Below are positions 5,464 through 63,232 of a stretch of DNA of 63,232 nucleotides, piece after piece. The DNA comes from Acidimicrobiales bacterium (lineage in GTDB: Bacteria; Actinomycetota; Acidimicrobiia; Acidimicrobiales; CAVXTF01). Under the pieces are notes generated by a model. The model had not been told where the DNA came from and searched no databases. It saw nothing but the letters and a program-made list of their open reading frames with translations. The stretch spans positions 1 to 63,232 of the forward strand of contig JBAPRR010000455.1 of NCBI GenBank assembly GCA_049281195.1, in the 5' to 3' direction. Position numbers and translations under genes: made by a program. How positions within the stretch are numbered: position 1 is the stretch's first letter; each line of letters starts with the position of its first letter.

Positions 5464-5482
5464 ATCGGAGCATCGGAATAGA

Positions 5483-6865: not shown

Positions 6866-7924
6866 TCAGCTTGCGAAACGTTCCCCCGTCCCGGCCACCA
6901 AGTCGCGGACCCTCGGAATCACCTCGGTCCCGTAGAGCTCGATAGCCCGCATCAGCTTTTCGTGGGGCATGCGACCGGCGCTGTACTTCAGGTCGAAACG
7001 GTCGATCCCGAGAATCGAGGCCGTCCTGGCGATCTTTCCTGCCACGGTCTCCGGGGATCCAACGTAGAGCGATCCATGTGCTGAAGCTTCGTGATCGAAC
7101 TGCGACCGTGTCATCGGGGGCCATCCCCTCGAAGCACCGATGCGGTCGCGCGCCTCTTTGAAGTATGGCCACAGCTCCTCACGCGCCTGCTCGTCGGATT
7201 CCGCGACGTAACCAGGGGAGTGAACCCCGATTGGAAGCGAGTCCTTGCCGAACTCCTCGAGCGCACGCCGGTAAAGGTCGGCGTAAGGCTCGAACCTCTG
7301 AGGGTCTCCACCGATGATCGCTAGAACCAAAGGCAGGCCGTAGTGGGCGGCCCTGACGACCGACTCCGGGCTTCCTCCGACTCCTACCCATGTTTTCAAC
7401 GAACTGGATTCGGTGGTGGGATAAACGCGTTGGCTCTCGAGAGACGACCTGGTATTTCCCGACCAGGACACCTCGCCTTCTTCGAGAAGCTTGACGAACA
7501 GTTCCAGTTTCTCTTCGAAGAGCTCCTCATAGTTGTTCAAGTCGAACCCGAAAAGCGGAAACGATTCGGTGAACGATCCGCGGCCGAGGATGACCTCCGC
7601 GCGACCGTTCGAGGCCGCGTCAAGCGTCGCGAAACGCTGGAACACGCGAACCGGGTCATCCGAGCTCAATACCGTTACGGCGGATCCGAGCCGGATGTGC
7701 TCGGTCTGCCCGGCGATTGCGGCCAACACCGTCTCGGGGGCCGAGATGGCGAAGTCGACCCGGTGATGCTCACCCACTCCGAAGAAATCCACGCCCACCC
7801 GGTCAGCCAGCACACCTTCATCGATCACGTTGCGGATCGCCTGAGCGTGGGACACCAACTCGCCATTTTCGTCTTCGTTCACGTCCCCGAACGTGTCCAA
7901 ACCAAACTCCAGGCCCTTGTTCAT
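6866..7924 (-). CDS. LLM-class (luciferase-like) flavin-dependent oxidoreductase
   Basis: Starts at internal ATG 7924 (MNKGLEFGLDTFGD...). The 63-codon extension in the track is Arg/Ser-rich and overlaps the TetR 3' end. Motifs VDFFGVGEHH and ILGRGSF are typical of LLM enzymes. Confidence 0.9.
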   Translation of the reverse strand: MNKGLEFGLDTFGDVNEDENGELVSHAQAIRNVIDEGVLADRVGVDFFGVGEHHRVDFAISAPETVLAAIAGQTEHIRLGSAVTVLSSDDPVRVFQRFATLDAASNGRAEVILGRGSFTESFPLFGFDLNNYEELFEEKLELFVKLLEEGEVSWSGNTRSSLESQRVYPTTESSSLKTWVGVGGSPESVVRAAHYGLPLVLAIIGGDPQRFEPYADLYRRALEEFGKDSLPIGVHSPGYVAESDEQAREELWPYFKEARDRIGASRGWPPMTRSQFDHEASAHGSLYVGSPETVAGKIARTASILGIDRFDLKYSAGRMPHEKLMRAIELYGTEVIPRVRDLVAGTGERFAS

Positions 7925-8063
7925 GGCCAGCGCTATCTCCTTCCAGAACTTTCTGCTACCTCTACAGTTGACATAACAACTAACTCTAGGTTGAACGCCT
8001 GACTCAGGCGGATATTCCCGGGGTGAGCTCCTGGGGACCGGACAGAGACGCCGAAACGAACGC

Positions 8064-8792
8064 CTACAGGTCGGCAGCGATTCCGTTGAGGATCCGCCCC
8101 AGCCCTCGCGCAAATCCGAGCTCTACGCGATCCGGCGCGTGGGGGCCTGTGGCGTCGATCACGACCCTCGCAACATGTGGATGGAGCCCTTCTTCGATGA
8201 TGGTTCTCATGTAATCGCTATATGACGCCATCCACTGCTCGACGGTCACCCCGCTTCTTAACGTCCCCTCCTCTTCGGCGAATTCGCTGAGGGCGTACCC
8301 GCGAACGAAAGCCTCGATCGTCATCATGATCACTAACTGCTCATCGATGTCGAGATCCAACGGATCGAGAGCAGCAAGACCTCGTTCCATCAATACGAGT
8401 CGGTTTGGACCGAGATTCGGCCGTCCCGCTGCGATGGTCGCCATCCAAGGATGCTGGCGAATGACGCCTCGCATCCGGCTGGCGAGGGAGATCAGGTCCT
8501 CGCGCCAGTCCCCCGTCAACTCAGGCACGCCTTCTTCGCCCTCGACCGAGTCGATCATCAGGTCGAGCAACTCGTCCTTACTGGTGACGTACCGGTACAG
8601 GGAAGTCGCTCCTGTGCCGAGGGCAGCCGCGATCCGGCGCATGGAGACCCCCTCGGCTCCGTCGGAGTCGGCAATGGCCACAGCCGCAGCGGCGATGGCC
8701 GCTCTGCTGTATGCCGGCGCCGGACCCTTGGCAGCCCGTTCGGGCCGGTCCCAGATGACCGAGTAGACGCCTGATTCCTCGGGTGCAGACAT
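8064..8792 (-). CDS. TetR/AcrR-family transcriptional regulator
   Basis: HTH VSMRRIAAALGTGATSLYRYVTSKDELL plus a helical C-terminal ligand domain. Divergent from the ABC operon at 8845. Confidence 0.9.
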   Translation of the reverse strand: MSAPEESGVYSVIWDRPERAAKGPAPAYSRAAIAAAAVAIADSDGAEGVSMRRIAAALGTGATSLYRYVTSKDELLDLMIDSVEGEEGVPELTGDWREDLISLASRMRGVIRQHPWMATIAAGRPNLGPNRLVLMERGLAALDPLDLDIDEQLVIMMTIEAFVRGYALSEFAEEEGTLRSGVTVEQWMASYSDYMRTIIEEGLHPHVARVVIDATGPHAPDRVELGFARGLGRILNGIAADL

Positions 8793-8844
8793 GAATCCCT
8801 CTCGGTATTGCGCACACTGTGCTCGGTAGTGTTATATTGTTACT

Positions 8845-9840
8845 GTGAACAGTGTACCCAAAAGCACCAGACCTGCCGGGCCCGACGTCATCGTGGTTGA
8901 CAAGCTGGTCAAGCGGTTCGGCACCACGACAGCGCTCGACGGGATCGACCTGCGTGTTCCCTCAGGAATCGTCTACGGGTTGCTCGGTCCGAACGGATGC
9001 GGGAAGACCACGACGGTGCGAATCCTCGCCACCCTCTCCTCCGTCGATGGCGGACGAGCAGAGGTGTGTGGGTTTGACGTCACCCGCGACCCTGACGAGG
9101 TCCGCAGCCGGATCGGCTTGGTCGGACAGCAGGCGGCCCTCGACGAGAGGCTTCCCGCTCGCCTCAACCTGATCATGTTCGGCCGGCTGTACCACCTCGG
9201 TGAACGTGGTGCGAAGAAGCGCGCAGACGAATTGATCGAGCGCTTCGGTCTCGGCTCAGCGGCGAACCGACTCGTCTCCACGTACTCAGGTGGAATGCGT
9301 CGTCGTCTCGACCTCGCAGCGAGCCTGATCATCTCGCCGCAGCTTCTGTTTCTCGACGAACCGACCACCGGGCTCGACCCACGCGGTCGGAGCGAGGTCT
9401 GGGCGGCGATCAAGGAGTTGACCGACGGTGGCACCACTGTCCTTCTGACGACTCAATACCTCGACGAGGCTGATCAGCTCGCGCAAAGAGTCGCTGTGAT
9501 CGATCAGGGACGCGTCCTCGCCGAAGGAACACCGAGTGACTTGAAGCGAAGTGTCGGCACCGACCGCTTGGAGATAGTGGTCACGGACCCCGCCGCCGTA
9601 GACATGGTGGTACAGCACCTTCGCGCCGCGAATCTGTCGCCCGACGCCGATTGGGAAAACGGCGTTGTGAGCGTGCCGATCATCGACGGACTATCCGACC
9701 TGTCGTCGGCGATCGCGGGCCTGAAGGACAGTGGGGTGCCGATCGGAGACATTTCTCTTCGCCGCTCGAGCCTCGACGACGTGTTTCTCAGCCTGACCGG
9801 ACATGCCACCGAAGACACTGAAGAAAGGGTTGCATCATGA
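8845..9840 (+). CDS. ABC transporter ATP-binding protein (DrrA type), paralogue of 278-1231
   Basis: GTG start. Walker A GPNGCGKTT, signature YSGGMRRRL, Walker B LLFLDEPTTGLD. Confidence 0.95.
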   Translation: MNSVPKSTRPAGPDVIVVDKLVKRFGTTTALDGIDLRVPSGIVYGLLGPNGCGKTTTVRILATLSSVDGGRAEVCGFDVTRDPDEVRSRIGLVGQQAALDERLPARLNLIMFGRLYHLGERGAKKRADELIERFGLGSAANRLVSTYSGGMRRRLDLAASLIISPQLLFLDEPTTGLDPRGRSEVWAAIKELTDGGTTVLLTTQYLDEADQLAQRVAVIDQGRVLAEGTPSDLKRSVGTDRLEIVVTDPAAVDMVVQHLRAANLSPDADWENGVVSVPIIDGLSDLSSAIAGLKDSGVPIGDISLRRSSLDDVFLSLTGHATEDTEERVAS

Positions 9841-10673
9841 CGGCCGTCATTCCTCTACCGAACCGACCGACACAGTCTCGGCGTCTTCGCTCCGCGCTCA
9901 TGGACGGTTGGACGATCGTACGCAGAGACATTGCGCACCTGCGCTACACCCCTTCCGAACTCGCCGCGGAGCTCATCTTTGCCGCTGTTATGGTCGTTTT
10001 GTTCGGATTCGTCTTCGGGAGCGCGATCAAAATCCCCGGAGGCGCCAACTACAGGGCATACCTGATGCCGGGACTATTCGCTTTCAGCCAGGTGACCGCG
10101 ATCGGCGTCATCGCTCTGGCAACAGCGGACGACGCGGCGACAGGGGTCATGGACAGGTTCCGCTCGATGCCCATCGCGCGTTCGGCGGTGCCCTTCGGAA
10201 GGACGGGAGCCAGCCTTGCGACAGGCATCCTCAACCTGACAGTGCTATCGATCGCTGGCTTGATAGTGGGTTGGAGGGCGAACCGCGGCCTGCTTGATGC
10301 TGCGGCCGCTTTCGGCTTGTTGCTGCTGACCCGCTACGCGCTCAGCTGGTTGGGCGCCTACCTGGGCCTCCTCGTCAAAAACCCCACCACCGCTGACAAT
10401 CTCGTTCCACTCAGCTTCCCGATTGCCATGCTCTCCAACACGTTCGTGCCCACCGGGGACCTGCCTTTGTGGCTGCGTTACATCGCCGAGTGGAACCCGG
10501 TTAGCTGCCTGGTCGGTGCATGCAGGGAGCTTTTCGGAAACCCTGGAGCGGCATCGCAGCACACGTCGTGGGCGCTGGAGCATCCGGTGGTGGCCACCTT
10601 GGTGTGGGCGATCTTGCTCATCTGCGTGTTCGCGCCCCTTGCCACGCGGCGGTACAGCAAAGCGCATCTCTGA
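9837..10673 (+). CDS. ABC-2 type transporter permease
   Basis: ATGA overlap with the ATPase. Multiple hydrophobic segments. Paralogous in layout to 1228-2010. Confidence 0.9.
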   Translation: MTAVIPLPNRPTQSRRLRSALMDGWTIVRRDIAHLRYTPSELAAELIFAAVMVVLFGFVFGSAIKIPGGANYRAYLMPGLFAFSQVTAIGVIALATADDAATGVMDRFRSMPIARSAVPFGRTGASLATGILNLTVLSIAGLIVGWRANRGLLDAAAAFGLLLLTRYALSWLGAYLGLLVKNPTTADNLVPLSFPIAMLSNTFVPTGDLPLWLRYIAEWNPVSCLVGACRELFGNPGAASQHTSWALEHPVVATLVWAILLICVFAPLATRRYSKAHL

Positions 10674-10688
10674 TTATCAGTAAGCTGA

Positions 10689-12242
10689 TCATCTAGCCAG
10701 ATCGAGCGTTGCGGTTTGGTGTTTCGATGTAGTCGGTTGCGGCGCCGACTTCCGCGTGGCGGGAAGAACGAGGTAAGCGGCAACTGCAGCCGCCAGTACC
10801 AAGATCGCCCCCACGACCATGGCCAGGTCGAGCCCACCGGAATAAGCGTGGCGAGCCGCCAGTCCTATCGCGCTGTCCGGCCCTCCCCCGACCCCCAACG
10901 CCTCTGACAGGCCGGCCTTTGCCTGAACGGCCCGCGCCGGTTGAGCCGCGATGACCGCACCGATCCCCGAGCGATAGTGAGAAAGGGTGACACTTCCGAG
11001 CACTCCGATTCCGAACGCACCGCCGAGCTCGCGGACAAGATCGTTGACCGCCGATCCCACGCCTGCCTTGTGGGGTGGCAGCGATGACATGATCGCTCCG
11101 GAGGCGGGCGGCATCGTAAGGCCGATGCCCATCCCGACCAATGCGAGACCCACCTCGAATACCCAAGTCGGCGATGTAACGCCGCTCGAGGTGAGGATAA
11201 ATAGTCCGCAGGCAGACGAAACCAGCCCGCATACGAGGACAGGGCGAAATCCATGGCGAGCCACGAACGGCCTGGAAAGGTTGGCCACCAACAGTTGCGC
11301 GAGACCGGCTGGGAGCGCATAAAGGCCGGCTACAAGCGGTGAGTAACCGCGAACTAGTTGGAAGTACTGGGTGAAGAGGAAGTACATCCCGAAGAGAGCG
11401 AAATAGGCCATCGCGATCGAAAGGCTTCCAGCTGAAAAACGGCGCTCCGAAAAGAAACTCAGATCAAGCATCGGATTGTCGCTTCGTCTTTCCCAATAGA
11501 TGAATCCGGCCAATCCCACCAAACCGATCACGAAGGACAACAGGATCGGTGCCGACAGCCACCCGTCGTCTGGGGCCTGGATGAACCCATAGAGCAATCC
11601 GCTCACCGCGATCACTGAGAGAACGGCACCGACAGGATCAAGCCGTGCTTCTTCGGGATGACGCGAAGTCGGCAGCACGAGCCATCCAGCAACCAGTGCA
11701 AAAGCAGCGACAAACGCCATGCCGAGAAAGATCGACCCCCACCAGAAATGCTCGAGCATCGCTCCCGACAACGTGATCGAGATTGCAACGGATCCTCCCG
11801 CGACCGAAGCCCACACTGCGATGGCCTTTGGACGTTCAGATGGCGGGAACACGGTTGCCAGGATCGAGAGCGTCCCGGGCATGACCAGAGCCGCCCCGAC
11901 CCCCATGACCGCACGAGCAAGCATCAATTCCCAGGCGGTTGTGGAGAACGCGCCGAGGGCTGATGCGACCATGAACACGAGCAAGCCGAATTGAAGTAAA
12001 CCTTTTCGGCCGAACCGGTCCCCCATGGCTCCGGCAGGCAGCAGTAGCCCGGCGAAGCACAGCACATAGAGATCGACGATCCAGGCGAGCGATGAGACCC
12101 CGGCATGCAGTTCCCGACCCAGAGTGGGAAGCGCGACGTTCAGAGCCATGTTGCAGACGACAAGCAGGAAAATGGACAGGCACAGAACCGCGAGTACCAG
12201 CCAGCGCCGTTTGTAGGAGGCCTCGATTGTAGGAGTAAGCAC
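10689..12242 (-). CDS. MFS transporter, DHA2 (EmrB/QacA-like, 14-TMS type)
   Basis: Motifs GAMGDRFGRKG (MFS motif A) and LARAVMGVGAALVMP. I place the start at GTG 12242 (VLTPTIEASYKRRW...), because the longer track ORF overlaps the divergent LysR gene. Confidence 0.88.
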   Translation of the reverse strand: MLTPTIEASYKRRWLVLAVLCLSIFLLVVCNMALNVALPTLGRELHAGVSSLAWIVDLYVLCFAGLLLPAGAMGDRFGRKGLLQFGLLVFMVASALGAFSTTAWELMLARAVMGVGAALVMPGTLSILATVFPPSERPKAIAVWASVAGGSVAISITLSGAMLEHFWWGSIFLGMAFVAAFALVAGWLVLPTSRHPEEARLDPVGAVLSVIAVSGLLYGFIQAPDDGWLSAPILLSFVIGLVGLAGFIYWERRSDNPMLDLSFFSERRFSAGSLSIAMAYFALFGMYFLFTQYFQLVRGYSPLVAGLYALPAGLAQLLVANLSRPFVARHGFRPVLVCGLVSSACGLFILTSSGVTSPTWVFEVGLALVGMGIGLTMPPASGAIMSSLPPHKAGVGSAVNDLVRELGGAFGIGVLGSVTLSHYRSGIGAVIAAQPARAVQAKAGLSEALGVGGGPDSAIGLAARHAYSGGLDLAMVVGAILVLAAAVAAYLVLPATRKSAPQPTTSKHQTATLDLAR

Positions 12243-12296
12243 AATCCCATTGTCGGGACCAGATGGGTTGCCGTCTAGTGACTTATTCGCAATAGA

Positions 12297-13217
12297 TTGT
12301 TGCGTATGACGCAAGATATCGACTGGAACCTGCTGAGCGCGCTGGACGTCCTTCTGGCTGAAGGCAGTGTCACCGCTGCCTCTGAACGCCTCCATCTGTC
12401 GGTTCCGGCAACGAGCCGCACGCTCGGACGGATCCGCCGGGCGTTCGGCGATCCCATCCTGGTTCGCTCAGGACGGGGGCTCGTTCCGACACCCAGGGCG
12501 CTCGCGGTTCAAGAACAACTCCACCGACTGATTGAAGATGCACACGCGCTCGTCGAGAGCGGTCGCGATCTCCACCTGTCTTCCCTCGAAAGGACTTTCG
12601 CGATCCGAGCCAACGACGCACTGATCAGCGCGCTTCCGGCACGTCTTATCGACCGGGTTCAAACACAAGCGCCGGGAGTTGCGTTTCGCTTCGTCGCAGA
12701 AGGTGAAGAGGACGTGGGTCCCTTACGCGACGGCTCGATCGATCTCGACCTCGGGCAGATTGCGGACTTCGGTCCTGACGTAAGGGTCAGCCCCCTTTAC
12801 CAGGAGACATATCTGGGGGTCGTGGCAGCAGATAACAAGCTCGCCAAAGGTCGCGTCACCCTCAAACGCTTGGCTTCCGTCGGGCACGTTGCCGTTTCGC
12901 GAAGGGGACGAAGAACGGGAGCGCTCGACGACGTACTTGCCGAACACGGGCTGGCCCGCACGGTCGTAACCGTGGTTCCGACATTCACGGCCGCGGCTCA
13001 CATCATCGCAAGCTCGGAACTGACCGGGATGCTCCCCGCCCGCTACGCACTGCAGATCGCGGGTTTGACCGGCATGCACCCCTACCCCATTCCCGCAGAG
13101 CTTCCGTCGCTGCAGATTTCCCAGGCATGGCACGTTCGCCAAGACCTCGATCCCGCGCACCAATGGTTGCGCGGTCAGATCGCTGAGGTTCTGGCCGATC
13201 CGCAGAAAACCGCCTGA
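12297..13217 (+). CDS. LysR-family transcriptional regulator
   Basis: N-terminal HTH LLSALDVLLAEGSVTAASERLHLSVPATSRTLGRIRRAFGDPILVR plus a LysR substrate-binding domain. Divergent from the MFS pump. An alternative start is ATG 12306. Confidence 0.9.
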   Translation: MLRMTQDIDWNLLSALDVLLAEGSVTAASERLHLSVPATSRTLGRIRRAFGDPILVRSGRGLVPTPRALAVQEQLHRLIEDAHALVESGRDLHLSSLERTFAIRANDALISALPARLIDRVQTQAPGVAFRFVAEGEEDVGPLRDGSIDLDLGQIADFGPDVRVSPLYQETYLGVVAADNKLAKGRVTLKRLASVGHVAVSRRGRRTGALDDVLAEHGLARTVVTVVPTFTAAAHIIASSELTGMLPARYALQIAGLTGMHPYPIPAELPSLQISQAWHVRQDLDPAHQWLRGQIAEVLADPQKTA

Positions 13218-13234
13218 GGTCAGCTCTCCTGGGG

Positions 13235-13723
13235 ATGATTTTCAAAGGCTACGCACGTCTTGACAGCAAGAGAGCTAAACCGGAGGTCGAAGTGCCCAAC
13301 GACAAGTCAATCGAACAGGTTCTCGATGGATACAGAGACGCCGTCGGAGCCAAGGACGTCGGGGCGTTTACAAACCTGTACGACGAAGATGTCGTGGTCT
13401 TCGACATGTGGGGCCCTTGGTCCTACGACGGTCTCGGGTCATGGAGAAACTCGGTCACAGAGTGGTTCGGTTCGCTAGGCGACGAGACCGTCGCTGTCGG
13501 CTTTTCCGAAACCGTCGTTCTCGATGCAGATCAGACTGCCGCCGTCCACACGCAGGTGTCCTATATGGGTATGTCCTTGGCCGGAGAAGAACTCCGGTCG
13601 ATGACCAACCGGCTCACCTGGGTCCTGAAGCGACAGGACGACTCGGGGTGGAAAATCATCCACGAGCACTCGTCGGCACCGCTCGACTTCGAAACGGGCA
13701 AGGTGGTCCTGAACCACCAGTGA
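13235..13723 (+). CDS. NTF2-like (SnoaL/DUF4440-type) protein
   Basis: 162 aa. The pattern FTNLYDEDVVVFDMWGP...RLTWVLKRQDDSGWKIIHEHSS is typical of the NTF2-like fold. Exact start is uncertain. Confidence 0.65.
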   Translation: MIFKGYARLDSKRAKPEVEVPNDKSIEQVLDGYRDAVGAKDVGAFTNLYDEDVVVFDMWGPWSYDGLGSWRNSVTEWFGSLGDETVAVGFSETVVLDADQTAAVHTQVSYMGMSLAGEELRSMTNRLTWVLKRQDDSGWKIIHEHSSAPLDFETGKVVLNHQ

Positions 13724-13729
13724 ATTCGC

Positions 13730-14752
13730 CTAACTCTGGCGAACCCCGTGCAGGTCGAAGATCTCGTCGAGCGCATTGACGATCTCGTCGACCACCTCGC
13801 GCCTCACGGTCAACTGCCGCTTTCTACCTTCGTTACTGCTCGTCACGACGCCTGCATCACGTAGCTGCTTGACGTGGTTGCTGACTGTCGGTTGTGCCAG
13901 ACCGAAAAGGTTGGTTACGTCGGTGATGCTCATATCGCGTTGAGTCAACGCGTCGAGGATGGCCAAGCGGGTCGGATCGGCGATGGCCTTCAGCCGACGC
14001 GCCAGATCCTCGGTGCGGGCACGAGACGCCACTCCCATCGGTTTCGCCTGCGTCCCGATGATCAATATCCCCGGCAGGTCCGCGACCAACCCCTTGGCGG
14101 TGAAGAACGCCGGGACCAAAACGATCTCGCCTTCGTCTCCCAACCCCTCGATCAACTGGGTCATCTCATTTCGGCCGATGTTTGTGCAGTTGACCTGTTC
14201 GAGGTACTTGAGGGTCAACTCTGTGGGATCGGAGCCGGACTTCAGATACGCCGCGCATTCGCCAAGGGCCGCCTCTACAGCTTTACGTCCATCTGTCTCC
14301 CAAAGTCCTCGCACCCCGGTCCACACCTCCGCAACGACTTCGACATAGTGACGACGGACACTCTGATCGGTGCGGAGAAGATGAAGGCGTCGCAAAAGTC
14401 GCTCCCTGTCATCAGGCGTTTCAGCGACGAACGGAAGGTCTTCGGGCGCGTTCACACAGAGGTCTTCGAGACGCGACACGAATGCGTCGGTGTCGAGTCC
14501 GAACAGAACACCACCGCCATAGGCCAGGGCGGACAGTTCCAAAAAACAGGGATAGCTCAGCGTCTCCTGCGGGCTCCACAGATGCCGGACCCGCTCCGCG
14601 ATCTCGGGGTGCTGCTCGTAGAAGTCGCACAAGGCGGGTTGCGAATCCCGGGCGACTCGAAGAGACCCGGAGAGCGCCCAATCGATCTCCACCGAGGGAG
14701 AAGCCTTAGCCGTCATCATGATCCCGTTGAGGTCTTCCGCATACATTCGCAT
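13730..14752 (-). CDS. ArsR-family transcriptional regulator with a long N-terminal (DUF5937-like) domain
   Basis: C-terminal LKAIADPTRLAILDALTQRDMSITDVTNLFGLAQPTVSNHVKQLRDAGVV is a canonical ArsR wHTH. Confidence 0.8.
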   Translation of the reverse strand: MRMYAEDLNGIMMTAKASPSVEIDWALSGSLRVARDSQPALCDFYEQHPEIAERVRHLWSPQETLSYPCFLELSALAYGGGVLFGLDTDAFVSRLEDLCVNAPEDLPFVAETPDDRERLLRRLHLLRTDQSVRRHYVEVVAEVWTGVRGLWETDGRKAVEAALGECAAYLKSGSDPTELTLKYLEQVNCTNIGRNEMTQLIEGLGDEGEIVLVPAFFTAKGLVADLPGILIIGTQAKPMGVASRARTEDLARRLKAIADPTRLAILDALTQRDMSITDVTNLFGLAQPTVSNHVKQLRDAGVVTSSNEGRKRQLTVRREVVDEIVNALDEIFDLHGVRQS

Positions 14753-53298: not shown

Positions 53299-53598
53299 CG
53301 GAACCCCCTGGATACTAAGGACCAATTCTGGGTAAATCTATTGGTTTGATCGTATTTAGCACATGCGGCGTCAGTCAACACGGCAGGCTCCCAAACTCCC
53401 CAAAACGGGGCGATCCACAGCTTCTGGAAGAAGCATTACCTGAGCCCGCCGCGAAATGTACGCGTAATTGCGCAATTCCATGGAGGGTCCCCTCAGGCCC
53501 AGGCAGAAGGGCTTTCTGCTCGTTTAACATGTCCGCGAGGCGGTGGCGGAGGAAGCGGGACCTCTCCCTCACTGGGGTAAGTGGCGAGGAGGGGACTT

Positions 53599-56500
53599 AT
53601 GCGTTTCGGCGTGAATGTGCGCAGACTCGTTGCACTCCGCCGTCCTGCGGTCCACCGCACGCTGACGGCTCTCCTCATCGCAATGAGCGGCATCTTGACG
53701 TCGGTCGGAGTCTCCTTGCTGACGTCCACGCCCGCGGCAGCAGTGAGCGTCTCAGCGATCGTAACCAACGTTCCAGACGGGGTCACAGCGGTCGCGACCG
53801 ATCCCTCGGGGGTCATCTTCGTCGGTGCAGACGACGGCAACGTCTACGCCTGGTCGCCCACGACCACGGCGCTTTACGACACAAACATTCCTGCCGACAC
53901 GCTCACCTCTCTCACCCCGGGAGGAGTGGGCCAGACATTCAGCCTGGACTACCACAACGGCGACCTATGGATCTCGGATTCGGCCGATGGGCTACAGGTT
54001 CTGTCTCCCACCACGACGACGCTCTACGGAGTTTCGGTCACTGCCGATACTCCGACCACCATCGTTGCCGCCACGTCGAGCGTAGACCCCACACAGGTGA
54101 CTTTCGATTCGAGCAACGACCTGTTCTTCGCTGACAGCGCGACGACGGCAGGAGACGGGTCGGTCGACATCGACCCTGTTGCGAGCGGGACCATTTTCGA
54201 TCAGAACATCACAGCCGACCAGGTTCACCCATTGATCGCCGATCTCAACCAGCCCGACGGCGTTGCGCTCGACTCGTCAGGGGACCTCTTCTTCTCCGAT
54301 GACTCGCTCGACTACATCGGCGTGCTCCCGGTTTCGAGCGGGACCGTCTTCGGCCAACCGGTCAATGCCGACACAGCCAGCGGACTGTTCTACGGCGTCG
54401 TGGGCGTCGACTCGTCGAGCGGGCTCGATGCAGGGCCATTGGACTTTGACTCTTCCGGCGATCTCTACTTCGTCAACCTCTATACAGGCGTCGGCATTGT
54501 GACCAATACGACCGGCACTTATATCGGGACACAGGTCACAGACGACACGCCGACCAACCTCGATCTCGAGATGGACGTGGAGGGAATCGCCTTCCAAACC
54601 TCCGGCCAACTGCTGATGGCCGACGGCGACGACGCAGCGATCGTTTCGGCCGCCGCACCGACTGCCACGATCACAAACGTCAGCATCTCCGGCTCGCTCG
54701 ACAACCCCACGCTCACCGTCACCGGAACCGGCTTCGGTACCGAGCCCGCGGCAGTCGCCCCGGGGTGCAGCGCGTCCGGCAACGACTACAGCTACAGCAC
54801 TTTCGTCTTGAGCGACTCTCAACAGCAATGGCAGGCCGGCATGCCCGGTGACTGCGTGGCTTTCAACATTGTCTCCTACAACGCGACTCAGGTCGTCGCC
54901 ACGTTCGGAAGTTGGTACACCGATCAAGAGGTGGGCTCCGGCACCGAGATCCACCCCGGCGACAACTTGTGGGTGGGGCTGGCCGGCGCATACGCACCGG
55001 CCACCGTCCCCGGAGTCACGTCGGTGGTGCCGGACACCGGGCCGGACTCGGGTGGGACGACTGTGACGATCTCCGGAGAAGGGTTCACCGGCGCCACAGC
55101 CGTCGACTTCGGCCCGGGAAACCCCGCCTCATTCACCGTTGATGACGACAACCAGATCACCGCCACATCGCCGGCGACCGGGACAGGCACGGTCGACGTG
55201 ACTGTGACCACGCCGGTCGGCACCTCTGCGACCTCGTCAGCTGATCAATTCACCTTCACCAACGACGTCGCTTCTGACTACTCCTGCACCGTGCCGGGAG
55301 ACGGGACCAACAGCTTCGCCATAGAGGTAACCGAATCGCCCAAGGCCCCGACCTCAGAAGATGTCGGTACGAACTTCGAAGAAGCACCATCCGTCGAGGT
55401 CACGATTCCGGCGCCCGTCGTCGAGTACTACATCGGCCAGGGGGCCTTTTCGCTCAATCTCGAGTCACAGTCCGCTACGGAAAACGGGCTGGCGTCACCC
55501 GATGGGGCGGCGAGCGGCGCGGTCAGCCCCAACTCGGAGTCCAGTTCGGCGAACGATGTCCCGCAGACATTCAGCCCGCTCTCCGACAGTTCGATCACGT
55601 ACCAGACCACCTACGACCCAGTGACCTGGCAGACAGGGCCTGGGACGGGGACCGTGTACCTGACCCCGGGCGACATCAACATCGTGCTGACCTACGACGT
55701 CGACAGCACACCTGAGAGCTCCCAGGTGTCATGTTCGCCGCCTTCCAACGAGGCCGCAGTCGACACCACGACGGTCGAGCCCGCGGCGACAAGCCCCACT
55801 TACCAGGTACCGACATCCACTCCCCCGGTGCAGAGCGGGGTCACGTCCGGAAATGACGACGGGTGGACGTTCGTCATTGCCAACACATCTGACGACACGG
55901 TGACCGGCTTGCAGACTCAGGTGACGATCACCGATGGCGGAACTCCACCTTCGTTCGACACAACGGCCATCTCAGCCTCGGGAACTAAGGATTGCACGGT
56001 CACCTCTCCGGGTGTTCTGACCTGTACCGAGAACGACCTGGACGCCGGCGCGACCGACACCATCAATGTCCTCGTAGATACCAGCGGACTGACACAAGGC
56101 GTGGGCGTCGAAGGTTCGGCTTCGGTGACCTCCACCAATGCCGGTTCCGCCGGTGACAGCCTGGGCCAGTTTTCAGTGGTGGTGGTGAACAATGGCGTCG
56201 AGTCGTCGGCGGTGCCTGGCATCGCCCTCGCATCGAGCTCTCTGCCACTGTCCGATACGGGAGCGGCTGTCACGTTGACGCTTCCGAAGAACAAGATTCC
56301 GGTCGCTGGACCACATGCATCCGGTGCCGTCCCTGACGGTTCTGCAAAGACAAAGCCGCCGGTCGTCGGAGTCACCCTCGAACCCGTACCGGAATCCGAT
56401 GAGCCCACACTGTGCCCGCCGGCGTCGGGCGGCTGCCCGACCGACGTACTCGAGGTCGAGGGAACCTTTACGAACTACGTGAACGCGGCCCATCCGCTCA

Positions 56501-56739
56501 TCGCAGTGCTTCAGTACTACTTCGGATCTTCGAAGCCCAAGGGCCCCGTGTACATGCTCGAGGACAGCGGGACCGTGCTCGCACTCGGCGCGTGCGTGCA
56601 GTCGAAAAAGACCGGCGACTGGAATACACCTTGTGTGGACGGGGCGCAAAAGACCACCGGGTCCAAGGGCAAGGGCACCCTGAGTGTGGAAGACATCGTC
56701 TACTTCACCGGGAACGACCCGGGTTTCTCCCTCCGGTGA
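53599..56739 (+). CDS. Secreted 1046-aa multidomain protein: signal peptide, NHL-like six-blade propeller, IPT/TIG domain, DUF11-like repeat
   Basis: GAGGAGGGG Shine-Dalgarno 5 nt before ATG 53599. Signal-like MRFGVNVRRLVALRR...LLTSTPAAAVS. Six repeats of the form PDGVALDSSGDLFFSD / GPLDFDSSGDLYFVN. IPT/TIG GVTSVVPDTGPDSGGTTVTISGEGFTGATAVDFG (about 55008-55260). No LPXTG motif or C-terminal TM seen. Confidence 0.8.
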   Translation: MRFGVNVRRLVALRRPAVHRTLTALLIAMSGILTSVGVSLLTSTPAAAVSVSAIVTNVPDGVTAVATDPSGVIFVGADDGNVYAWSPTTTALYDTNIPADTLTSLTPGGVGQTFSLDYHNGDLWISDSADGLQVLSPTTTTLYGVSVTADTPTTIVAATSSVDPTQVTFDSSNDLFFADSATTAGDGSVDIDPVASGTIFDQNITADQVHPLIADLNQPDGVALDSSGDLFFSDDSLDYIGVLPVSSGTVFGQPVNADTASGLFYGVVGVDSSSGLDAGPLDFDSSGDLYFVNLYTGVGIVTNTTGTYIGTQVTDDTPTNLDLEMDVEGIAFQTSGQLLMADGDDAAIVSAAAPTATITNVSISGSLDNPTLTVTGTGFGTEPAAVAPGCSASGNDYSYSTFVLSDSQQQWQAGMPGDCVAFNIVSYNATQVVATFGSWYTDQEVGSGTEIHPGDNLWVGLAGAYAPATVPGVTSVVPDTGPDSGGTTVTISGEGFTGATAVDFGPGNPASFTVDDDNQITATSPATGTGTVDVTVTTPVGTSATSSADQFTFTNDVASDYSCTVPGDGTNSFAIEVTESPKAPTSEDVGTNFEEAPSVEVTIPAPVVEYYIGQGAFSLNLESQSATENGLASPDGAASGAVSPNSESSSANDVPQTFSPLSDSSITYQTTYDPVTWQTGPGTGTVYLTPGDINIVLTYDVDSTPESSQVSCSPPSNEAAVDTTTVEPAATSPTYQVPTSTPPVQSGVTSGNDDGWTFVIANTSDDTVTGLQTQVTITDGGTPPSFDTTAISASGTKDCTVTSPGVLTCTENDLDAGATDTINVLVDTSGLTQGVGVEGSASVTSTNAGSAGDSLGQFSVVVVNNGVESSAVPGIALASSSLPLSDTGAAVTLTLPKNKIPVAGPHASGAVPDGSAKTKPPVVGVTLEPVPESDEPTLCPPASGGCPTDVLEVEGTFTNYVNAAHPLIAVLQYYFGSSKPKGPVYMLEDSGTVLALGACVQSKKTGDWNTPCVDGAQKTTGSKGKGTLSVEDIVYFTGNDPGFSLR

Positions 56740-56754: not shown

Positions 56755-59700
56755 ATGAACGCCGCCAGCGGTTCCGACCTCTTCCTCCCCTACCTCACCG
56801 CCCCGGCGGTGGCGTGGGCGCGAGACGAGGCAGCAAACGAGAGCGCAACGCGCTCGCAGTCCGTCGCCGGGACGATGGTGTTCGGTGACATCTCGGGATT
56901 CACAAAGATGTCGGAGCGCCTGGCACGCCACGGCAAGGTGGGCGCAGAAGAGGTCGCCGACGCCATCAACACCTGCTTCGAGCAACTCCTCGACGCCGCC
57001 TACAAGTTGGGCGGGAGCCTGTTGAAGTTCGGCGGCGATGCGATGCTGCTCCTTTTCACAGGTCCGGACCACGCCATAAGAGCGGCCCATGCCGCGATCG
57101 GGATGCGCTCCCGACTACGCAGCGCCGGTCGGTTGCACACCACGGCGGGCGAGGTGGTTCTCCGCATATCGGTCGGAGTTCACAGCGGTACGTTCGACCT
57201 GTTTCTCGTGGGAGATTCTCACCGCGAGCTCGTTGTCGCCGGGCCTGACGCCAGCACAACAGTTGATGCCGAGGCCACGGCGTCCGCCGGCGAGATCGTG
57301 ATGAGCGCGCAGACCGCGGCCCTGTTGCCGGCCCGGGCCAGAGGCCCGGCATGCGGAGCGGGATACCTGCTTCGTTCCCCCGGCGGTCCCCCGCCTCGGA
57401 TGGCGCCGAAGCGCCCCGATCCGGGACAAGCCGACATCTCCCGCTTCGTGCCGGCAGCCATCAGGCGCCACCTGGTCGAAGGCGGAGAAGAGCACGAGCA
57501 CCGGACTGCCACCGTGGCGTTCTTACACTTCGACGGCATAGACGACCTGGTGACGGAATTGGGCATCCACGAGGTGGCGCGACAACTCGATGCCGTGGTC
57601 CGGGCCGCGCAGGCCGCGGCCGACAGCCACCAGGTGAGCTTCCTGGGAACAGACATCGACAAGGACGGGGGAAAGATCATCCTCACCGCCGGCGTGCCGA
57701 GCCGCGCCGGCGACGACGAACAGCGGATGCTCCTTGCCGTCCGACAGGTCCTCGACCAACAGTTGCCACTGCACCTTCGCGTTGGCGTGAACACCGGGCC
57801 GGTATTCGCCGGCGATATCGGAACTCCGTTTCGGCGCACGTTCACCGTCATGGGCGACACGGTGAACCTCGCGGCCCGCTTGATGGCACGGGCCGAGCCC
57901 GACCAGGTCCTGGTCACAAAAGAGACTCTCAGCCGATCTGACGTCCAATTCGTCGCCGCCGAGCTTCCACCCTTCACCGTCAAGGGAAAGCGGCGGCCGG
58001 TGCAGGCGTTCGCAGTCGGCGCTCCGGACCGCGCTCACCGTTCTGTCACCGATCGCCTGCCACTGACCGGACGCGAAGAAGAGGTCGCTGTCCTGAGAGA
58101 GGCCGTCCGGGCGGCCTCCACGGGAGCCGGACGCGTGGTGGAGTTGGTCGGCGACCACGGATCAGGCAAGTCACGGCTGGCGGAGGTGCTTGTCGCTGAG
58201 TCCGAAACCCTTCCCACTTTCACGATCGTGTGCGAGCCGTACGAGTCGGCCACGCCTTACGCCACTTTCAACATTTTGGGGCGGGCCCTTGTCGGCGTGG
58301 AAATGGACGCCGCGGCCGAAACAGTGCGACAGAACCTCGTCACCTACCTCGAGCGGGAGGCTCCCGATCTGCGCTCCGACCTGTCGTTGCTCGCAACGGT
58401 CATCGGCCTGGATCTTCCCGACCCTCCGGCATTGGCCGCACTCGAGCCCGAGTTTCGTCGTCAGGCGGTGGCGGAGGCTTCCGCCCACTTGTTCTGCCGC
58501 GCTCTCGGACTCCCACGCGTGCTCGTGATTGAAGATGCGCAGCACATGGATCCTGCGTCGCAACAGATCATGGGGATCATGGTGCGCAACCTCGCCGAGC
58601 GCCCCGGTGCAATCTGCATCACCAGAAGGGAAACCGACGGAGGTTTCTCCGTCGATGAGGCGCCGCATACACGATCGGTGTTGCTTGCTCCTTTGACATC
58701 CATCCAGGCCAAGGCGGCACTGATCGCGGCCACAGAAGATGAGCCTCTCCTGCCTCACGAGATCCAGTTCATGGCCGACCGCAGCATGGGCAACCCTCTC
58801 TTCTTGGAGGAGCTGTGGCGATCGCGTCGAGACGGCGCAGGTATAGAAGCGCTCCCCGACTCGGTCGACGCCGCGGTCGGCGTGCAGATCGACAGCCTCC
58901 GTGCGCGGGACCGCCGCATCCTGCGATCCGCTTCTGTGCTCGGCTCGGTCTTCTTCGAGCGCGACCTCCGTGAACTGCTCGAGGCGTCAGGTCTTTTGAT
59001 CGACGATGGACTTGACCCAGGAGCACGCTCTTCGGCTCTGCCGCGATCGCTCGACCAGTTCCTCACCACCGACTCATCCGGCCTCGTGCGGTTCAGTTCC
59101 GCCCTAGTACGCGAGTGCGCGTACGAGGGACTCCCTTATCGCCGCAGACGCGAACTTCACGGGCGCGCCGCTGAGAGGCTCGAGGCCAGGGGCGGCACCG
59201 AATCCGACGCCGAGGTGCTGTCTCTTCACTACTTCTACGCGCAGCAGTTCGCCGCGGCGTGGCACCACGCTCGCACTGCCGCGCGCAACGCCAGCGACAA
59301 ATACGCCAACGTGGAATCGGCGAGACTGTACGAGAGAGCGCTGGCATGCACATCGCACATCGATGACCTGAACCGCGCAGACGTTGCGTCGGCGTGGGAG
59401 ATGCTCGGCGACGTGCGCGAGCGCGCCGGTGACTTCAAAGGCGGTGCTGCGGCCTACCGTCGAGCTGGGGGACTCACCACCGAGGTCGTCGCAAAGGCCG
59501 AGCTGTGCCTCAAAGAAGCTTGGATGGCTGAACGCCTCGGGCAGTTCCCATTGGCGGTGAGATGGATCCGCCGCGGATTGCGGGCTATCGCGAACCTCGA
59601 CAACCGGCCCGCGGGCCAGCTCCGCGCCCAGTTGATGACTTGGTACACCGCCGTCCGCCAAGCCCAGGGCCGGAGCTCCGAAGCAGTCGTCTCCGGCGAG

Positions 59701-60648
59701 CGGGCCGTCGCAGAAGCCAGAACCTGGGGTAATCGCAAGGCCGAGGCACACGCCCTGTCCCTACTCGACTGGGCTCTGGTTTCCCTCGGGCGCGCCGGTT
59801 CGGCCAACCACTCCGAAGATTCGGTGGCTATTTACCGCGAGCTCGGGGACCTCGGCGGGGAAGCGCAGGTGCTCAACAACATGGGCGGCTTCGCGTACTT
59901 CCGCGGCGCATGGGACGAAGCCGTCTCTTTCTACCGCCAGGCCCAGGACATCCGCCTGCGGACCGGCAACGAGGTGGAGGCGGCGATCTGCACCTTCAAC
60001 ATCGGAGAGATCCTGTCGGATCAGGGACACTTCGACGAGGCCCGCCCGCACCTGGACGAAGCTCTGCGCGTGCTGCGCGCGGCGCGCTATTCATGGGGGA
60101 TCGGCTACGCCATGATGCTGATCGGCAGGTTGGAGTCGCGCACGGGCTCCTTCGACTCCTCGTGGACCCACTTCGAGTCGTCACTGCGGGCGTTTCACGA
60201 GGTCGCCCGCGAAGCCGACGCATTTCAAGTGGAGTCGCTGATCGCCGAGTCCCTTGTCTTCCAGGGGCGGGCCACCGAGGCGCTCGACATCGCCGTTCGT
60301 CTAGCTGCGGATGTGGCCCGCGTCGGCTCAGCCGTGGGGAACGCGCTGGTCGAACGGGTGCGGGGGTACGCACTGGCACAACTCGGGGATCTCCGAAGCG
60401 CCGGTAGCGCTTTTGAAGCCAGTCGAACGACGGCGGAGGAGCTCGGAGCCGATTACGAGCTGATGCTGACGCTCGACGCCATGCGCTCGACAGGGGTCAG
60501 CTACCCAGACGGACATTCGCCCGAAGAGCTCACCGTGCGTATCGACGAGCTGCGCCAGCGACTCGGGATCGTGGTTCTTCCCGTGGTACCGATGACGGCG
60601 GCGGGTTCATCCCACACGTTTACCGGGCTGGTGGGCTCCCCGAGCTAG
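56755..60648 (+). CDS. Tandem class III cyclase homology domains + P-loop STAND ATPase + TPR-like repeat protein (1297 aa)
   Basis: CHD1 motifs FGDISGFT (56881-56904) and GGDAML (57031-57048). CHD2 motif [10 protein letters not shown] (57853-57882). Walker A GDHGSGKS (about 58150-58173). The C-terminal ~600 aa are helical/TPR-like repeats (e.g. [28 protein letters not shown]). Confidence 0.9.
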
Positions 60649-60745
60649 CCGGCATCGGCGCAGCCGGGGCGGGGAGATACAGCGCCGTGACCGTGTCTTC
60701 AGGCAGCATGGCAGACCTGTCGGGAGTAGCGGGAGGACTTTGAAC

Positions 60746-63232
60746 ATGCGCGGAGCGGGAGCGATCACGGCTGACTCGGTAACCGAGGGTGCGGGAGTCG
60801 TTCCCCCTGCACAGTCTCGTCCTTACGCCCCGATGGCCGCCATCGGTGTCGCCGCGTTCGGCGCGTTCCTCGCCTTCATGGACTCGACCGTGGTCAATGT
60901 GGCATTCCCCAACATCCAGGCCGCATTTCCGCACGCCACGGTCAGCACTCTTTCGTGGGTCCTCAATGCGTACAACGTGGTTTTCGCCGGCCTCCTCGTA
61001 CTTTCCGGACGTTTCGCCGACCTGCTCGGGAGGAGGCGCCTGTTCAAGCTGGGCCTGCTCATCTTCACCATCGCATCGGCCTTGTGCGCGGCGTCCAACT
61101 CGGTGGGAATGCTCATCGGGCTCAGAGCCATACAGGCTGTGGGCGCGGCCATGCTCGTTCCAGCCTCGCTCGGGATAGTCGTACATGCCTCGCCCAGCGA
61201 GCACAGGACCAGAGCGCTCAGCATCTGGGCGGCGGCGGCCGCTCTCGCCGCGGGCCTCGGGCCGCCGATCGGCGGTGCGTTGGTCGATCTCTACAATTGG
61301 CGTCTCGTATTCCTGATCAACGTCCCGCTCGGGTTGTTGGCCTGGGTCCTCGCCCGGCACGCCGTGATCGAAAGCCGTGCACCGGGAAGCCGCGTGATGC
61401 CGGATCTGCGCGGCGCCCTCCTGCTGTCGGCCGCCATCGGCTCGGTGACCCTCGGCGTGGTGCAGGGAAGCACATGGGGCTGGGCGAGCATCGGCACCGT
61501 CAGTGCATTCGTGGTCTCCGCACTGTGCGTGGCGCTGACTGTCCTGAGCTCGATGAAGCACCGATCCCCGGTGCTCGATCCGCAACTGCTCCGCATACGT
61601 GGCTTTCTCGTCTCCAACATCGTGACAGTCGCCTGCGGGCTCGGCCTTTACTGCTACCTGCTCGCCCACATCCTGTGGTTGCACTACGTGTGGGGATACT
61701 CGCTGCTCCTGGCCGGGCTCGCCGTCGCTCCTGGTGCGGTGGTAGCCGCCATCGTCTCGGTGCCTGCGGGGCGCCTGGCCGAGCGGATAGGCCCGCGACC
61801 CGTCGTCGTAGTGGGATCGATTGTGTGGGGCCTGGCCTACGTGTGGTACTCCACCCGCGTCGGGCTCAGACCCGACTTCGTCGGCCAGTGGCTGCCCGGG
61901 CAGATAATCAGTGGCATCGGTGTGGGCTCCACACTTCCCACCGCGTCGGCCGGAGGCCTGGCCACGGTCCCGGCCGGTCGTTACGCCACCGCATCTGCGG
62001 TCAACTCGAGCGCCCGCCAACTGGGAGGCGTTCTCGGGATCGCCATCCTCACCGTCTTCATCTCCCACGAGACGATCCTCACCTTCGCCGACGACGTGAG
62101 GCGGGGCTGGAAGCTCGCGGCAGGCGCCTTCTTCGTCGCCGCGTTCGTGGCGCTCTTCTTCGGGCGCATCCACGAGTCGAGCGAGGAAACCGACGTCGGA
62201 TCACGAGGTCCGTTGCTCGATCAGAGACCCGAGCCGGCTGTGGTGGCGGCGACACGTCGCGAAGGGGCCGACTTTCTCGACCTGCTCCCGGCTCAGGTGA
62301 GAACCCGGCTGATCGAAACCGGAGAACCCCTCGAACTGCGCGCTGGAACAACCTTGTTCTCGAGCGGCGAAGTCGGCGACGCCCTGTACGTGCTTCAGGC
62401 CGGGAGACTGGAATTGGAACGGCCCGATGGAGGGCGCCTGGACTTCTATCCCACCTCCACCTTCGGGGAGCTGGCGCTGCTCACGGACGCGCCCCGTTCG
62501 GGAACGGTCATCGCCCGGCGTGACAGCCGGTTGGTGCGCGTCAGTCGCGAGCGGTTCGACGGTCTGGCCGCCGCTGAACCTGCCGTGATGGACGCCGTGG
62601 CCAGAGGTATCGCCTTCCGCCTCCACGACAGCACCCCGATGAACCCTCCGGCGCGCCCCGAGCCGAAGGTCCTGTCGGTTGTGGGGGTCGACGTCGACAC
62701 CGAGGCCCAGAAAGTGGCGGCGGTCGTCCAAGGTGGCCTCGTGGAGAAAGGCCTGCGGGTGGCACTGCTCGCCGACTTCGCGCCCGACGGGCTCCAGCGG
62801 GCCGAGTCGGACAACGACAGGGTCGTCCTCGCATGCGGACGCAGCAGCACATGGCGCGACGCGGGCCTCCGCCAGGCCGATCGCGTGGTGCTCGTCTCCA
62901 GTAATCCGGCTGAGACCGGCATGCTGCCGGTCAATGTTCCCTGCGATGTCGTCTTGGTCGGCCACGCGCCGACACAAGCTCAGATCGTGGCATGGCACGA
63001 CGCTTCGGAGTGCCGGCGCGTGTACCACGTCGGTGAGGATCCAGCCTCGTGGCAGGCCGGCCTGCGCGCTCTCATCGCGCGCATCGCCGGTGACTCCGTA
63101 GGACTCGTCCTCGCCGGTGGTGGCGCCAGGTCTCTGGCCCACCTGGGAGTGCTTCACGCTCTCGAGGAGGCCGGAGTCGTCGTCGACCGCGTTTCGGGAA
63201 CGAGCATGGGCGCGTTCATCGCGTCGCTGTAC
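60746..63232 (+). CDS. MFS transporter fused to a cyclic-nucleotide-binding domain and a patatin-like phospholipase domain (3' end beyond the window)
   Basis: Absent from the ORF track (no stop in the window). My manual translation is open for 829 codons from ATG 60746, with GGGAGGA upstream. MFS: [47 protein letters not shown]. cNMP-binding: [14 protein letters not shown]...[18 protein letters not shown] (about 62270-62590). Patatin: [16 protein letters not shown] (63116-63124 = GGG) and the GTSMG nucleophile elbow (63197-63211). Confidence 0.85.

Follow-up and report, generated by a model that had tools for sequence, protein, structure and literature searches.

A truncated gene for an MFS transporter, cyclic-nucleotide-binding and NTE-like patatin fusion protein beside a nucleotide cyclase gene in an Acidimicrobiales contig

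Introduction

Proteins in which a transporter of the major facilitator superfamily (MFS) is joined to a cyclic-nucleotide-binding (CNB) domain and a patatin-like lipase domain include Rv3728 and Rv3239c from Mycobacterium tuberculosis, which we take to be the textbook examples of this fusion family. The architecture was reportedly described for both proteins by McCue et al. in 2000, together with an MFS-free version for Rv2565. Rv3728 and Rv3239c have been listed in papers as putative MFS efflux pumps and also as "two domain membrane protein", and Rv3728, of at least 803 codons, appears in addition as a hypothetical esterase. No biochemistry and no experimentally defined function were found for them in the literature. 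Here we describe a further member of this family, encoded at the end of the 63,232-nucleotide (nt) contig JBAPRR010000455.1 from an Acidimicrobiales bacterium (assembly GCA_049281195.1), the whole of which is referred to as the window. The gene had been picked out in an earlier reading of the letters alone (the sequence-only reading), which had considered the function of such an architecture experimentally undefined, and no such function was found for it in the literature.

The window gene shares with the Rv3728/Rv3239c-type family the domain order and the size class of ~1,000-1,100 amino acids (aa), with a single frame for the 829 aa contained in the window. It differs in being truncated at the 3' end, in coming from an Acidimicrobiaceae-type metagenome-assembled genome (MAG), and in having a STAND-type cyclase gene directly upstream. 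The neuropathy target esterase (NTE) family includes PNPLA6/NTE as well as stand-alone CNB-patatin proteins of bacteria, among them M. tuberculosis Rv2565, and resembles the C-terminal module of the fusion in its order of CNB, P-loop-like domain (a probable relative in the fusion), and patatin, with the Ser-Asp dyad that the full-length fusions carry. However, the fusion has one CNB domain where NTE has three, its membrane part is a transporter with 14 transmembrane (TM) helices instead of the single N-terminal helix of NTE, and the window copy lies below the threshold of the NTE_Ploop model. The DHA2 transporters EfpA, EmrB, QacA, and the triacylglyceride type Rv1410/MHAS2168 resemble the membrane part in their 14 helices and in motifs A and C, but they carry no C-terminal CNB or lipase module and are 22-29% identical to the fusion. 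LplT-Aas offers an analogy, not a homology: an MFS lipid transporter is coupled to a lipid enzyme of the cytoplasmic face, and the two are fused in some bacteria (PMC11416262), but its transporter comes from an unrelated MFS subfamily, its enzyme is not a hydrolase but an acyltransferase/acyl-ACP synthetase, and there is no cyclic-nucleotide sensor. Finally, Pycsar (PycC with a CNB effector) and the CBASS patatin CapV recall the locus in placing a cyclase beside a CNB-bearing membrane or lipase effector, a likeness that extends to domain matches in PADLOC, whereas the fusion differs in its conserved antiporter-lipase effector, its metabolic context, and its seemingly vertical inheritance.

The window gene adds a new, truncated member to an actinobacterial family that is already known and widely annotated. 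Its 5' four-fifths are preserved, and it is otherwise an ordinary chromosomal gene, of the Acidimicrobiaceae type, for an MFS / cyclic-nucleotide-binding / NTE-like patatin fusion. As a gene-finding observation it carries little weight, the gene being already called and its architecture common and named. Its value lies in the undefined function of the family, whose M. tuberculosis members are listed as efflux pumps or hypothetical esterases. The constraint on all three modules, the EfpA-like MFS domain, and the recurrent cyclase lead to a testable hypothesis, in which lipid hydrolysis is gated by a cyclic nucleoside monophosphate (cNMP) and coupled to transport. The main new point is the adjoining cyclase gene; its recurrence and the affinity of the MFS domain to lipid transporters are context inferences at the level of a hypothesis and not a new kind of system.

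A fusion gene cut by the contig end

The plus-strand frame that starts at ATG 60746 contains 829 codons without a stop and is still open at the last base of the contig, with the nearest in-frame stop upstream of the start at 60593. Profile searches matched the Pfam domains MFS_1, cNMP_binding, and Patatin in this one frame, in the expected order. The sequence-only reading had arrived at the same long gene and at the order MFS, CNB, intermediate domain, and patatin, and every motif that it had quoted (an MFS motif, the CNB cassette, GGGAR, and GTSMG) is present at the positions listed in the sections below.

60732..60737, + strand: Shine-Dalgarno-like GGAGGA with an 8-nt spacer to ATG 60746, read from the sequence
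60746..63232, + strand: partial coding sequence of the MFS-CNB-NTE_Ploop-like-patatin fusion, 829 codons; open frame, GC content at third codon positions (GC3) of 0.80, Pfam and NCBIfam matches; 3' end cut by the contig end

The GC content by codon position in this frame is 0.70/0.52/0.80, the normal coding pattern for a sequence of ~66% GC, and the neighbouring genes are alike. Long antisense and out-of-frame open reading frames (ORFs) are to be expected in high-GC DNA, and three such ORFs compete with the fusion frame. GC3 favours the fusion frame over the span of the plus-strand ORF at 60955-62523 (0.81 versus 0.52) and over that of the minus-strand ORF at 60620-62173 (0.82 versus 0.66). 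Thus, the frame analysis put forward in the sequence-only reading decides the matter for these two spans, but not for 62201-63157, where the fusion frame (0.777) and the antisense ORF (0.765), a compositional mirror image, have nearly the same GC3; the coding strand was therefore settled there by homology. None of the three rival ORFs has a Pfam match better than E = 0.086, and arginine makes up 24% of one of them, an odd composition.

The gene is absent from the ORF list because this list leaves out any ORF that is still open where the sequence ends, and the fusion frame has no stop in the window. It had been thought to be masked by shadow ORFs, an explanation that gives way to this rule of the list. 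The fusion gene is confirmed as real, and it is already called in public data, where its exact 829-aa partial product is found in a protein collection (P0001).

A scan with one genome per species found 390 relatives; the identities and carriers reported here are those of the best 80 of these 390, all of which align across residues ~20-829 of the window protein. Homology also bears on whether the frame might be an artefact, such as a frame that stays open by chance at high GC content or a false junction of two or three genes created by an assembly or frameshift error, with one of the listed ORFs being the real gene. Spurious long ORFs do arise in such DNA, GC3 fails to separate the two strands over 62201-63157, and in the closest MAG locus (L012) the fusion gene is split into two ORFs. 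However, three independent Pfam domains lie in one frame and in the expected order, hundreds of homologues encoded by a single ORF, cultured isolates included, align to the frame without gaps, and the rival ORFs have no family matches. The neighbouring genes of L012 are broken too, which looks like indel noise of that assembly. When tested, an artefact was not supported, and its probability is negligible.

In L012, the genes for the IPT/TIG-domain protein, the cyclase, and the fusion (positions 578-11086) are each spread over several overlapping ORFs, which look like the result of assembly indels and not like real pseudogenes. Given these apparent frameshifts throughout, nothing about the missing 3' end of the fusion gene was derived from this locus, which is 78% identical to the window protein.

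The MFS transporter domain

The N-terminal half of the protein is matched by Pfam MFS_1 (aa 37-431, E 1.1e-52) and by the NCBIfam DHA2/EmrB model TIGR00711, with 260.9 bits against a curated cut-off of 230.2 over residues 32-447. Further NCBIfam matches of this part are to EmrB, QacA, LfrA, and Tet models. By sequence model and motifs, the domain belongs to the 14-TM DHA2 (EmrB/QacA) subfamily of the MFS.

60830..62152, + strand: DHA2-type MFS domain with 14 TM helices, aa ~29-469 (TIGR00711, AlphaFold2 model of the relative P0002, Foldseek, conservation)
61001-61045, + strand: MFS motif A, aa 86-100 (sequence motif, defined as G-x-x-x-D-x-x-G-R-R/K)
61253-61282, + strand: antiporter motif C, aa 170-179 (sequence motif, defined as G-x-x-x-G-P-x-x-G-G)

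The structure was assessed on P0002, the full-length relative nearest to the window protein (1,053 aa, 77% identical), with an AlphaFold2 model that was built from an alignment of 45 sequences and has a mean predicted local distance difference test (pLDDT) of 85.7 and a predicted TM-score (pTM) of 0.70. The model has 14 long TM helices at residues 27-467, seen on this relative and not on the window protein itself, in keeping with the about 14 hydrophobic segments counted in the sequence-only reading. The number of helices was taken from the secondary structure of the model, as a Kyte-Doolittle count gave overlapping and uninterpretable segments. In a Foldseek search against the PDB, the best match of the membrane part was M. 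tuberculosis EfpA with bound lipids (8x6x), with a TM-score normalised to the target of 0.82, followed by EmrB, QacA, and MHAS2168 (an Rv1410 homologue), all with TM-scores normalised to the target of 0.74-0.82.

The MFS domain is the most conserved region of the protein across the 45 sequences, with a mean column identity of 0.74 and 40% of its columns at least 90% identical. Invariant residues include G88, D92, G95, and R96 of motif A, G172, P173, G176, and G177 of motif C, and the charged intramembrane residues D46 and R127. This strong constraint argues that the domain is more than an anchor. It is the main obstacle to a reading in which a transport-dead MFS simply tethers a cNMP-regulated NTE-like lipase, the task that falls to a single TM helix in eukaryotic NTE: this enzyme is indeed generally known to be membrane-anchored, and stand-alone CNB-patatin proteins work without an MFS domain, but conservation of this degree goes far beyond what anchoring needs, and we regard a mere tether as very unlikely.

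The TIGR00711 score above its cut-off, the matches to drug transporter models, and the invariance of the antiporter motif would also suit a cAMP (cyclic AMP)-gated efflux pump. The MFS domain would then be a conventional DHA2 antiporter of drugs or metabolites against H+, the CNB domain would regulate transport, and the patatin domain would be accessory or act on an unrelated substrate. However, published links to drugs come from correlations of expression, not from assays of transport, and the features of the soluble half described below also speak against such a pump.

Two more ORFs for DHA2-like MFS proteins, both without a C-terminal extension, are found on the contig at 33972-35696 (- strand) and 10692-12467 (- strand). 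In phmmer comparisons with the MFS part of the fusion, they gave E-values of 1.3e-49 and 2.1e-43, respectively.

The soluble half

The C-terminal half looks like an NTE-type module, with a CNB domain, a P-loop-like domain, and a patatin domain, and is connected to the last TM helix by a tether.

62153..62272, + strand: tether from TM14 to the CNB domain, aa ~470-509, of low conservation and predicted to be disordered (pLDDT of P0002, column identity)
62273..62635, + strand: cyclic-nucleotide-binding domain, aa ~510-630 (Pfam cNMP_binding, PDB matches, β-roll in the AlphaFold2 model)
62462-62515, + strand: phosphate-binding cassette of the CNB domain, aa 573-590 (sequence motif)
62672..63088, + strand: Rossmann-like α/β domain, probable relative of the NTE-family P-loop-like domain, aa ~643-781 (NTE_Ploop in relatives, AlphaFold2, invariant residues)
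62792-62830, + strand: conserved LQRAE..D motif of the intermediate domain (45-sequence alignment)
62867-62896, + strand: conserved RQAD motif of the intermediate domain (45-sequence alignment)
63098..63232, + strand: N-terminal ~45 residues of the patatin-like lipase domain (Pfam Patatin); the remainder lies past the contig end
63116-63130, + strand: patatin oxyanion motif GGGAR, aa 791-795 (sequence motif)
63197-63211, + strand: patatin nucleophile elbow GTSMG, aa 818-822 (sequence motif)

The tether is the least conserved region (mean column identity 0.37), and its pLDDT falls below 50 at P0002 residues 478-484 and 493-504. The CNB domain that follows is matched by Pfam PF00027 cNMP_binding (aa 530-609, E 1.1e-15, 57.8 bits against a cut-off of 27.5) and, among sequences in the PDB, by the CNB domains of PKG and PKA-R, and it is modelled as a β-roll at P0002 residues 508-626. 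G574, E575, and R584, which hold the ribose-phosphate, are invariant in the 45 sequences. The cassette reads PRSGT, which does not decide the ligand specificity.

The ~150-aa stretch that the sequence-only reading had taken for a linker is a conserved domain of ~140 aa, probably related to Pfam PF24179 NTE_Ploop, the "Neuropathy Target Esterase family P-loop like domain". This model is matched by 15 of the 45 family members, with a best E-value of 7.9e-06 and all scores below the 27-bit gathering score. At P0002 residues 640-778, the model shows an alternating β-α, Rossmann-like fold with pLDDT above 90, and A686, E687, V693, and D712 are invariant across the alignment.

The patatin domain is matched by Pfam PF01734 (aa 787-829, E 1e-11, 45.9 bits against a cut-off of 27.7), and the match ends at profile position 44 of 191, where the contig stops. 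G792, G793, A794, R795, G818, and S820 are invariant in the 45 sequences, and the catalytic Asp, whose position is past the window end, is present as D-G in all 44 full-length relatives (D931-G932 in P0002). In the P0002 model, the patatin fold starts at residue 782 and is followed by a long C-terminal helix, and the best counterpart of the lipase part in the PDB was Pseudomonas PlpD, with a TM-score normalised to the target of 0.79. Judging from their invariant motif residues, all modules look functional. The family-wide invariance of the patatin catalytic residues means that the lipase is under selection, which fits poorly with the accessory role that it would have in an efflux pump.

Family size and distribution

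The sequence-only reading had regarded the joining of a transporter to a cyclic-nucleotide sensor and a lipase as unusual. The fusion turned out to be common, being found in at least 80 species-level Actinomycetota genomes, and in a word-indexed protein search the three Pfam domains recurred together in more than 100 clusters, whose proteins are ~1,020-1,090 aa long. Its relatives already carry public names, from NCBI and JGI among others, such as [quoted passage not shown], "DHA2 family efflux MFS transporter permease subunit", and "NTE family protein". The best genome match is L012, from an uncultured Acidimicrobiaceae MAG, and assigns the window to this bacterial family. The window protein aligns end to end with full-length relatives of ~1,050 aa. 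Acidimicrobiaceae-type loci are 62-78% identical to the window protein and most other Actinomycetota 46-51%, and this agreement of identity with taxonomy fits vertical inheritance. Cultured carriers include Nocardioides potassii, N. aestuarii, N. zhouii, Phycicoccus flavus, Actinotalea lenta, Longivirga aurantiaca, Mycobacterium szulgai, and M. angelicum. The comparison with mycobacteria was made through the last two, Rv3728 and Rv3239c not being among the best 80 loci. Their homologues are 46-47% identical at full coverage, and the M. angelicum protein (1,040 aa, with MFS, CNB, and patatin domains) is 47% identical over window residues 35-828.

The soluble module is far more widespread than the fusion. 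An exhaustive HMMER search with window aa 495-829 (335 residues) at E <= 1e-30 gave 171 representative clusters, most of which are stand-alone CNB-patatin proteins of 550-640 aa, many aligning over the full 335 residues of the module. At least 13 of the 171 clusters, formed at 50% identity, are MFS fusions of ~1,000-1,100 aa; all six of the long proteins sampled were confirmed as such, besides one 902-aa variant. This stand-alone occurrence in most clusters suggests that the CNB-Ploop-patatin block behaves as a self-contained regulated lipase that became attached to an MFS transporter. It also suggests that the CNB domain regulates the lipase, and, with the selection on the lipase and the correlative nature of the drug links, makes a cAMP-gated efflux pump an unlikely explanation, even if it deserves more attention than the other alternatives.

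The same search matched five giant multi-CNB proteins of 1,367-3,779 aa (P0121, P0123, P0127, P0128, and P0130) through 7-14 repeated CNB stretches; these are unrelated to the fusion.

The upstream nucleotide cyclase

The gene that precedes the fusion encodes a large nucleotide cyclase, whose stop codon lies 97 nt before the fusion ATG on the same strand.

56755..60648, + strand: class III nucleotide cyclase, 1,297 aa, with two cyclase-homology domains, an AAA_16 (STAND) NTPase, and TPR repeats (Pfam)

Pfam Guanylate_cyc matches this protein in two stretches (1.7e-27), along with AAA_16 and TPR_12, and the overall layout is the same as that of the full-length mammalian soluble adenylyl cyclase ADCY10. 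In the first cyclase-homology domain, both Asp residues for metal binding are retained, and the domain can be aligned with P. aeruginosa CyaB and with the C1 domain of human ADCY10 (2e-10). The second has lost the metal-binding Asp and keeps the Asn/Arg transition-state pair. Between them, the two domains would supply a single complete active site in the manner of C1/C2 cyclases, and the cyclase is probably active. The positions that specify the substrate are non-canonical, and are conserved as D-x-[DN]-x-D-G-G-K in 20 neighbour cyclases. A scan of the 97-nt gap for promoters and terminators gave no terminator-like site and no other signal, although such a scan is uninformative either way for a high-GC actinobacterium.

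A cyclase of the same type (E < 1e-20) is found within 8 kb of the fusion in 20 of 81 related loci. In 15 of these 20, it lies upstream on the same strand, and the lineages involved span several orders, with Nocardioides, Phycicoccus, and Actinotalea among them; the two Mycobacterium loci examined have no such cyclase nearby. Assuming a handful of these cyclases per genome, chance alone would place roughly one or two in the flanking sequence examined, which totals ~1.07 Mb. The association is treated here as real but facultative, since most loci are free of the cyclase and some have an intervening gene, which indicates that the pairing is not an obligate operon. The cyclase is the probable functional partner of the fusion. 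The intervening gene, an ORF on the opposite strand, is typical of the Nocardioides/Marmoricola type of locus.

6787-7857 of locus L050, - strand: ORF between the cyclase and the fusion, Nocardioides/Marmoricola-type; also in L034, L039, L040, L042, L051, L055, L064, L071, L075, and L080

This ORF is conserved, with a length of 340-530 aa and a GC3 of 0.77-0.93, and had no Pfam match.

A cyclase adjoining a CNB-bearing membrane or lipase effector is also the logic of Pycsar. In an anti-phage module of the Pycsar or CBASS kind, a STAND/TPR cyclase would sense infection, and its cNMP would cause the CNB-patatin effector to destroy the membrane, leading to abortive infection. The PycTIR and PycC models of PADLOC do match the CNB domain (~1e-12 to 1e-15) and the cyclase (7e-14), the specificity residues of the cyclase are non-canonical, and defence systems are generally known to make frequent use of STAND NTPases with TPR sensors and of patatin effectors. 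However, the PADLOC matches are at the level of domains, and for the cyclase and the lipase the general model fits better: the cyclase scores 96.7 bits with Guanylate_cyc and 49.7 bits with PycC, and the lipase gives 7e-29 with Patatin and 2.6e-06 with the CBASS phospholipase model. The neighbourhood is metabolic and not a defence island, the family is broad and apparently vertical within the phylum, with identities that follow taxonomy, and most of its loci have no cyclase. A strongly conserved 14-TM antiporter would, moreover, be a suicide effector without precedent. An anti-phage module thus appears highly improbable, and it was rejected as the main explanation, as PADLOC, the neighbouring genes, and the distribution do not describe a compact pair in a defence context.

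Proposed mechanism

The reading that we favour, with somewhat better than even confidence, is that a cNMP made by the cyclase binds the cytoplasmic sensor of the fusion and switches a membrane-tethered lipase, whose lipid substrate or product is handled by the EfpA-like MFS domain. The 14-TM domain would sit in the cytoplasmic membrane, with the CNB, P-loop-like, and patatin domains held at its inner face by a flexible tether of ~35 residues; this orientation follows from the even number of helices and the general rule that both termini of MFS proteins are cytoplasmic. The ligand of the CNB domain would be a cyclic nucleotide, most likely cAMP, supplied by the tandem-domain STAND/TPR cyclase encoded 97 nt upstream. 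Its binding may relieve or impose inhibition of the Ser-Asp patatin acyl hydrolase through the P-loop-like domain, as has been proposed for NTE-type CNB-patatin proteins. The lipase would act on membrane glycerolipids or lysolipids of the inner leaflet, and the MFS domain would supply the substrate or remove the product (a lysolipid or fatty acid). One polypeptide would in this way couple signalling to hydrolysis and transport.

A lipid role is proposed for the MFS domain because it is strongly constrained, because its nearest solved relatives are lipid transporters, and because LplT-Aas provides a precedent. EfpA has been shown to be a lipid transporter (PMC11536138), and LplT-Aas couples a lysophospholipid flippase with an acyltransferase, natural fusions of which exist (PMC11416262).

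Several observations weigh against this reading. The non-canonical specificity residues make the product of the cyclase unreadable from its sequence, and cAMP is therefore not established. The enrichment of the cyclase is an estimate that rests on an assumed genomic background and on loci that are not phylogenetically independent, the 8-kb surroundings of around three quarters of the related loci contain no cyclase of this type, and in Nocardioides-type loci an opposite-strand gene separates the cyclase from the fusion. The intermediate domain of the window protein itself has no NTE_Ploop match at E <= 1, and that of P0002 reaches E 0.13. The window ends before the last ~220 residues of the protein, the catalytic Asp among them. 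Finally, no biochemical data were found in the literature for any family member, and we infer the ligand, the lipid substrate, the transport substrate, and the direction of regulation alike.

A stronger version, which we consider speculative and rather improbable, would make the STAND/TPR cyclase and the fusion a dedicated second-messenger circuit in the Acidimicrobiaceae lineage and in about a quarter of the related loci. A signal sensed by the STAND/TPR part, possibly metabolic or in the extreme case a phage infection, would lead to a possibly non-canonical cNMP, in response to which the lipase-transporter would remodel or disrupt the membrane. If true, such a circuit would give the long-orphan Rv3728/Rv3239c family its first defined input and output.

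Other genes around the fusion

Upstream of the cyclase gene, at a distance of 15 nt, lies a gene whose membership in the locus is uncertain.

53581..56739, + strand: IPT/TIG-domain protein, 1,052 aa, membership uncertain (Pfam TIG, 4.2e-09)

IPT/TIG is the only recognisable domain of this protein. The order TIG, cyclase, fusion occurs only in the closest loci, L001, L002, and L012, with the TIG gene of L001 at 2870-6004.

In Acidimicrobiaceae-type loci, a separate patatin-only gene for a protein of ~287 aa lies convergently just after the fusion (13147-14010, - strand, in L001; also in L002-L008, L011, L012, and L041), and would be expected just past position 63232 of the window. PADLOC gave no match for this small patatin protein.

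The mycobacterial loci have other neighbours. In M. angelicum (L081), and likewise in M. szulgai (L067), the fusion is flanked by a stand-alone CNB-patatin protein (639 aa), an FHA-domain protein, and a Ser/Thr protein kinase.

4707-6626 of locus L081, - strand: CNB-patatin gene
6878-7906 of locus L081, + strand: FHA-domain gene
11035-12777 of locus L081, + strand: Ser/Thr kinase gene

These flanks suggest a phospho-signalling context for the mycobacterial fusions, unlike the cyclase context of the window.

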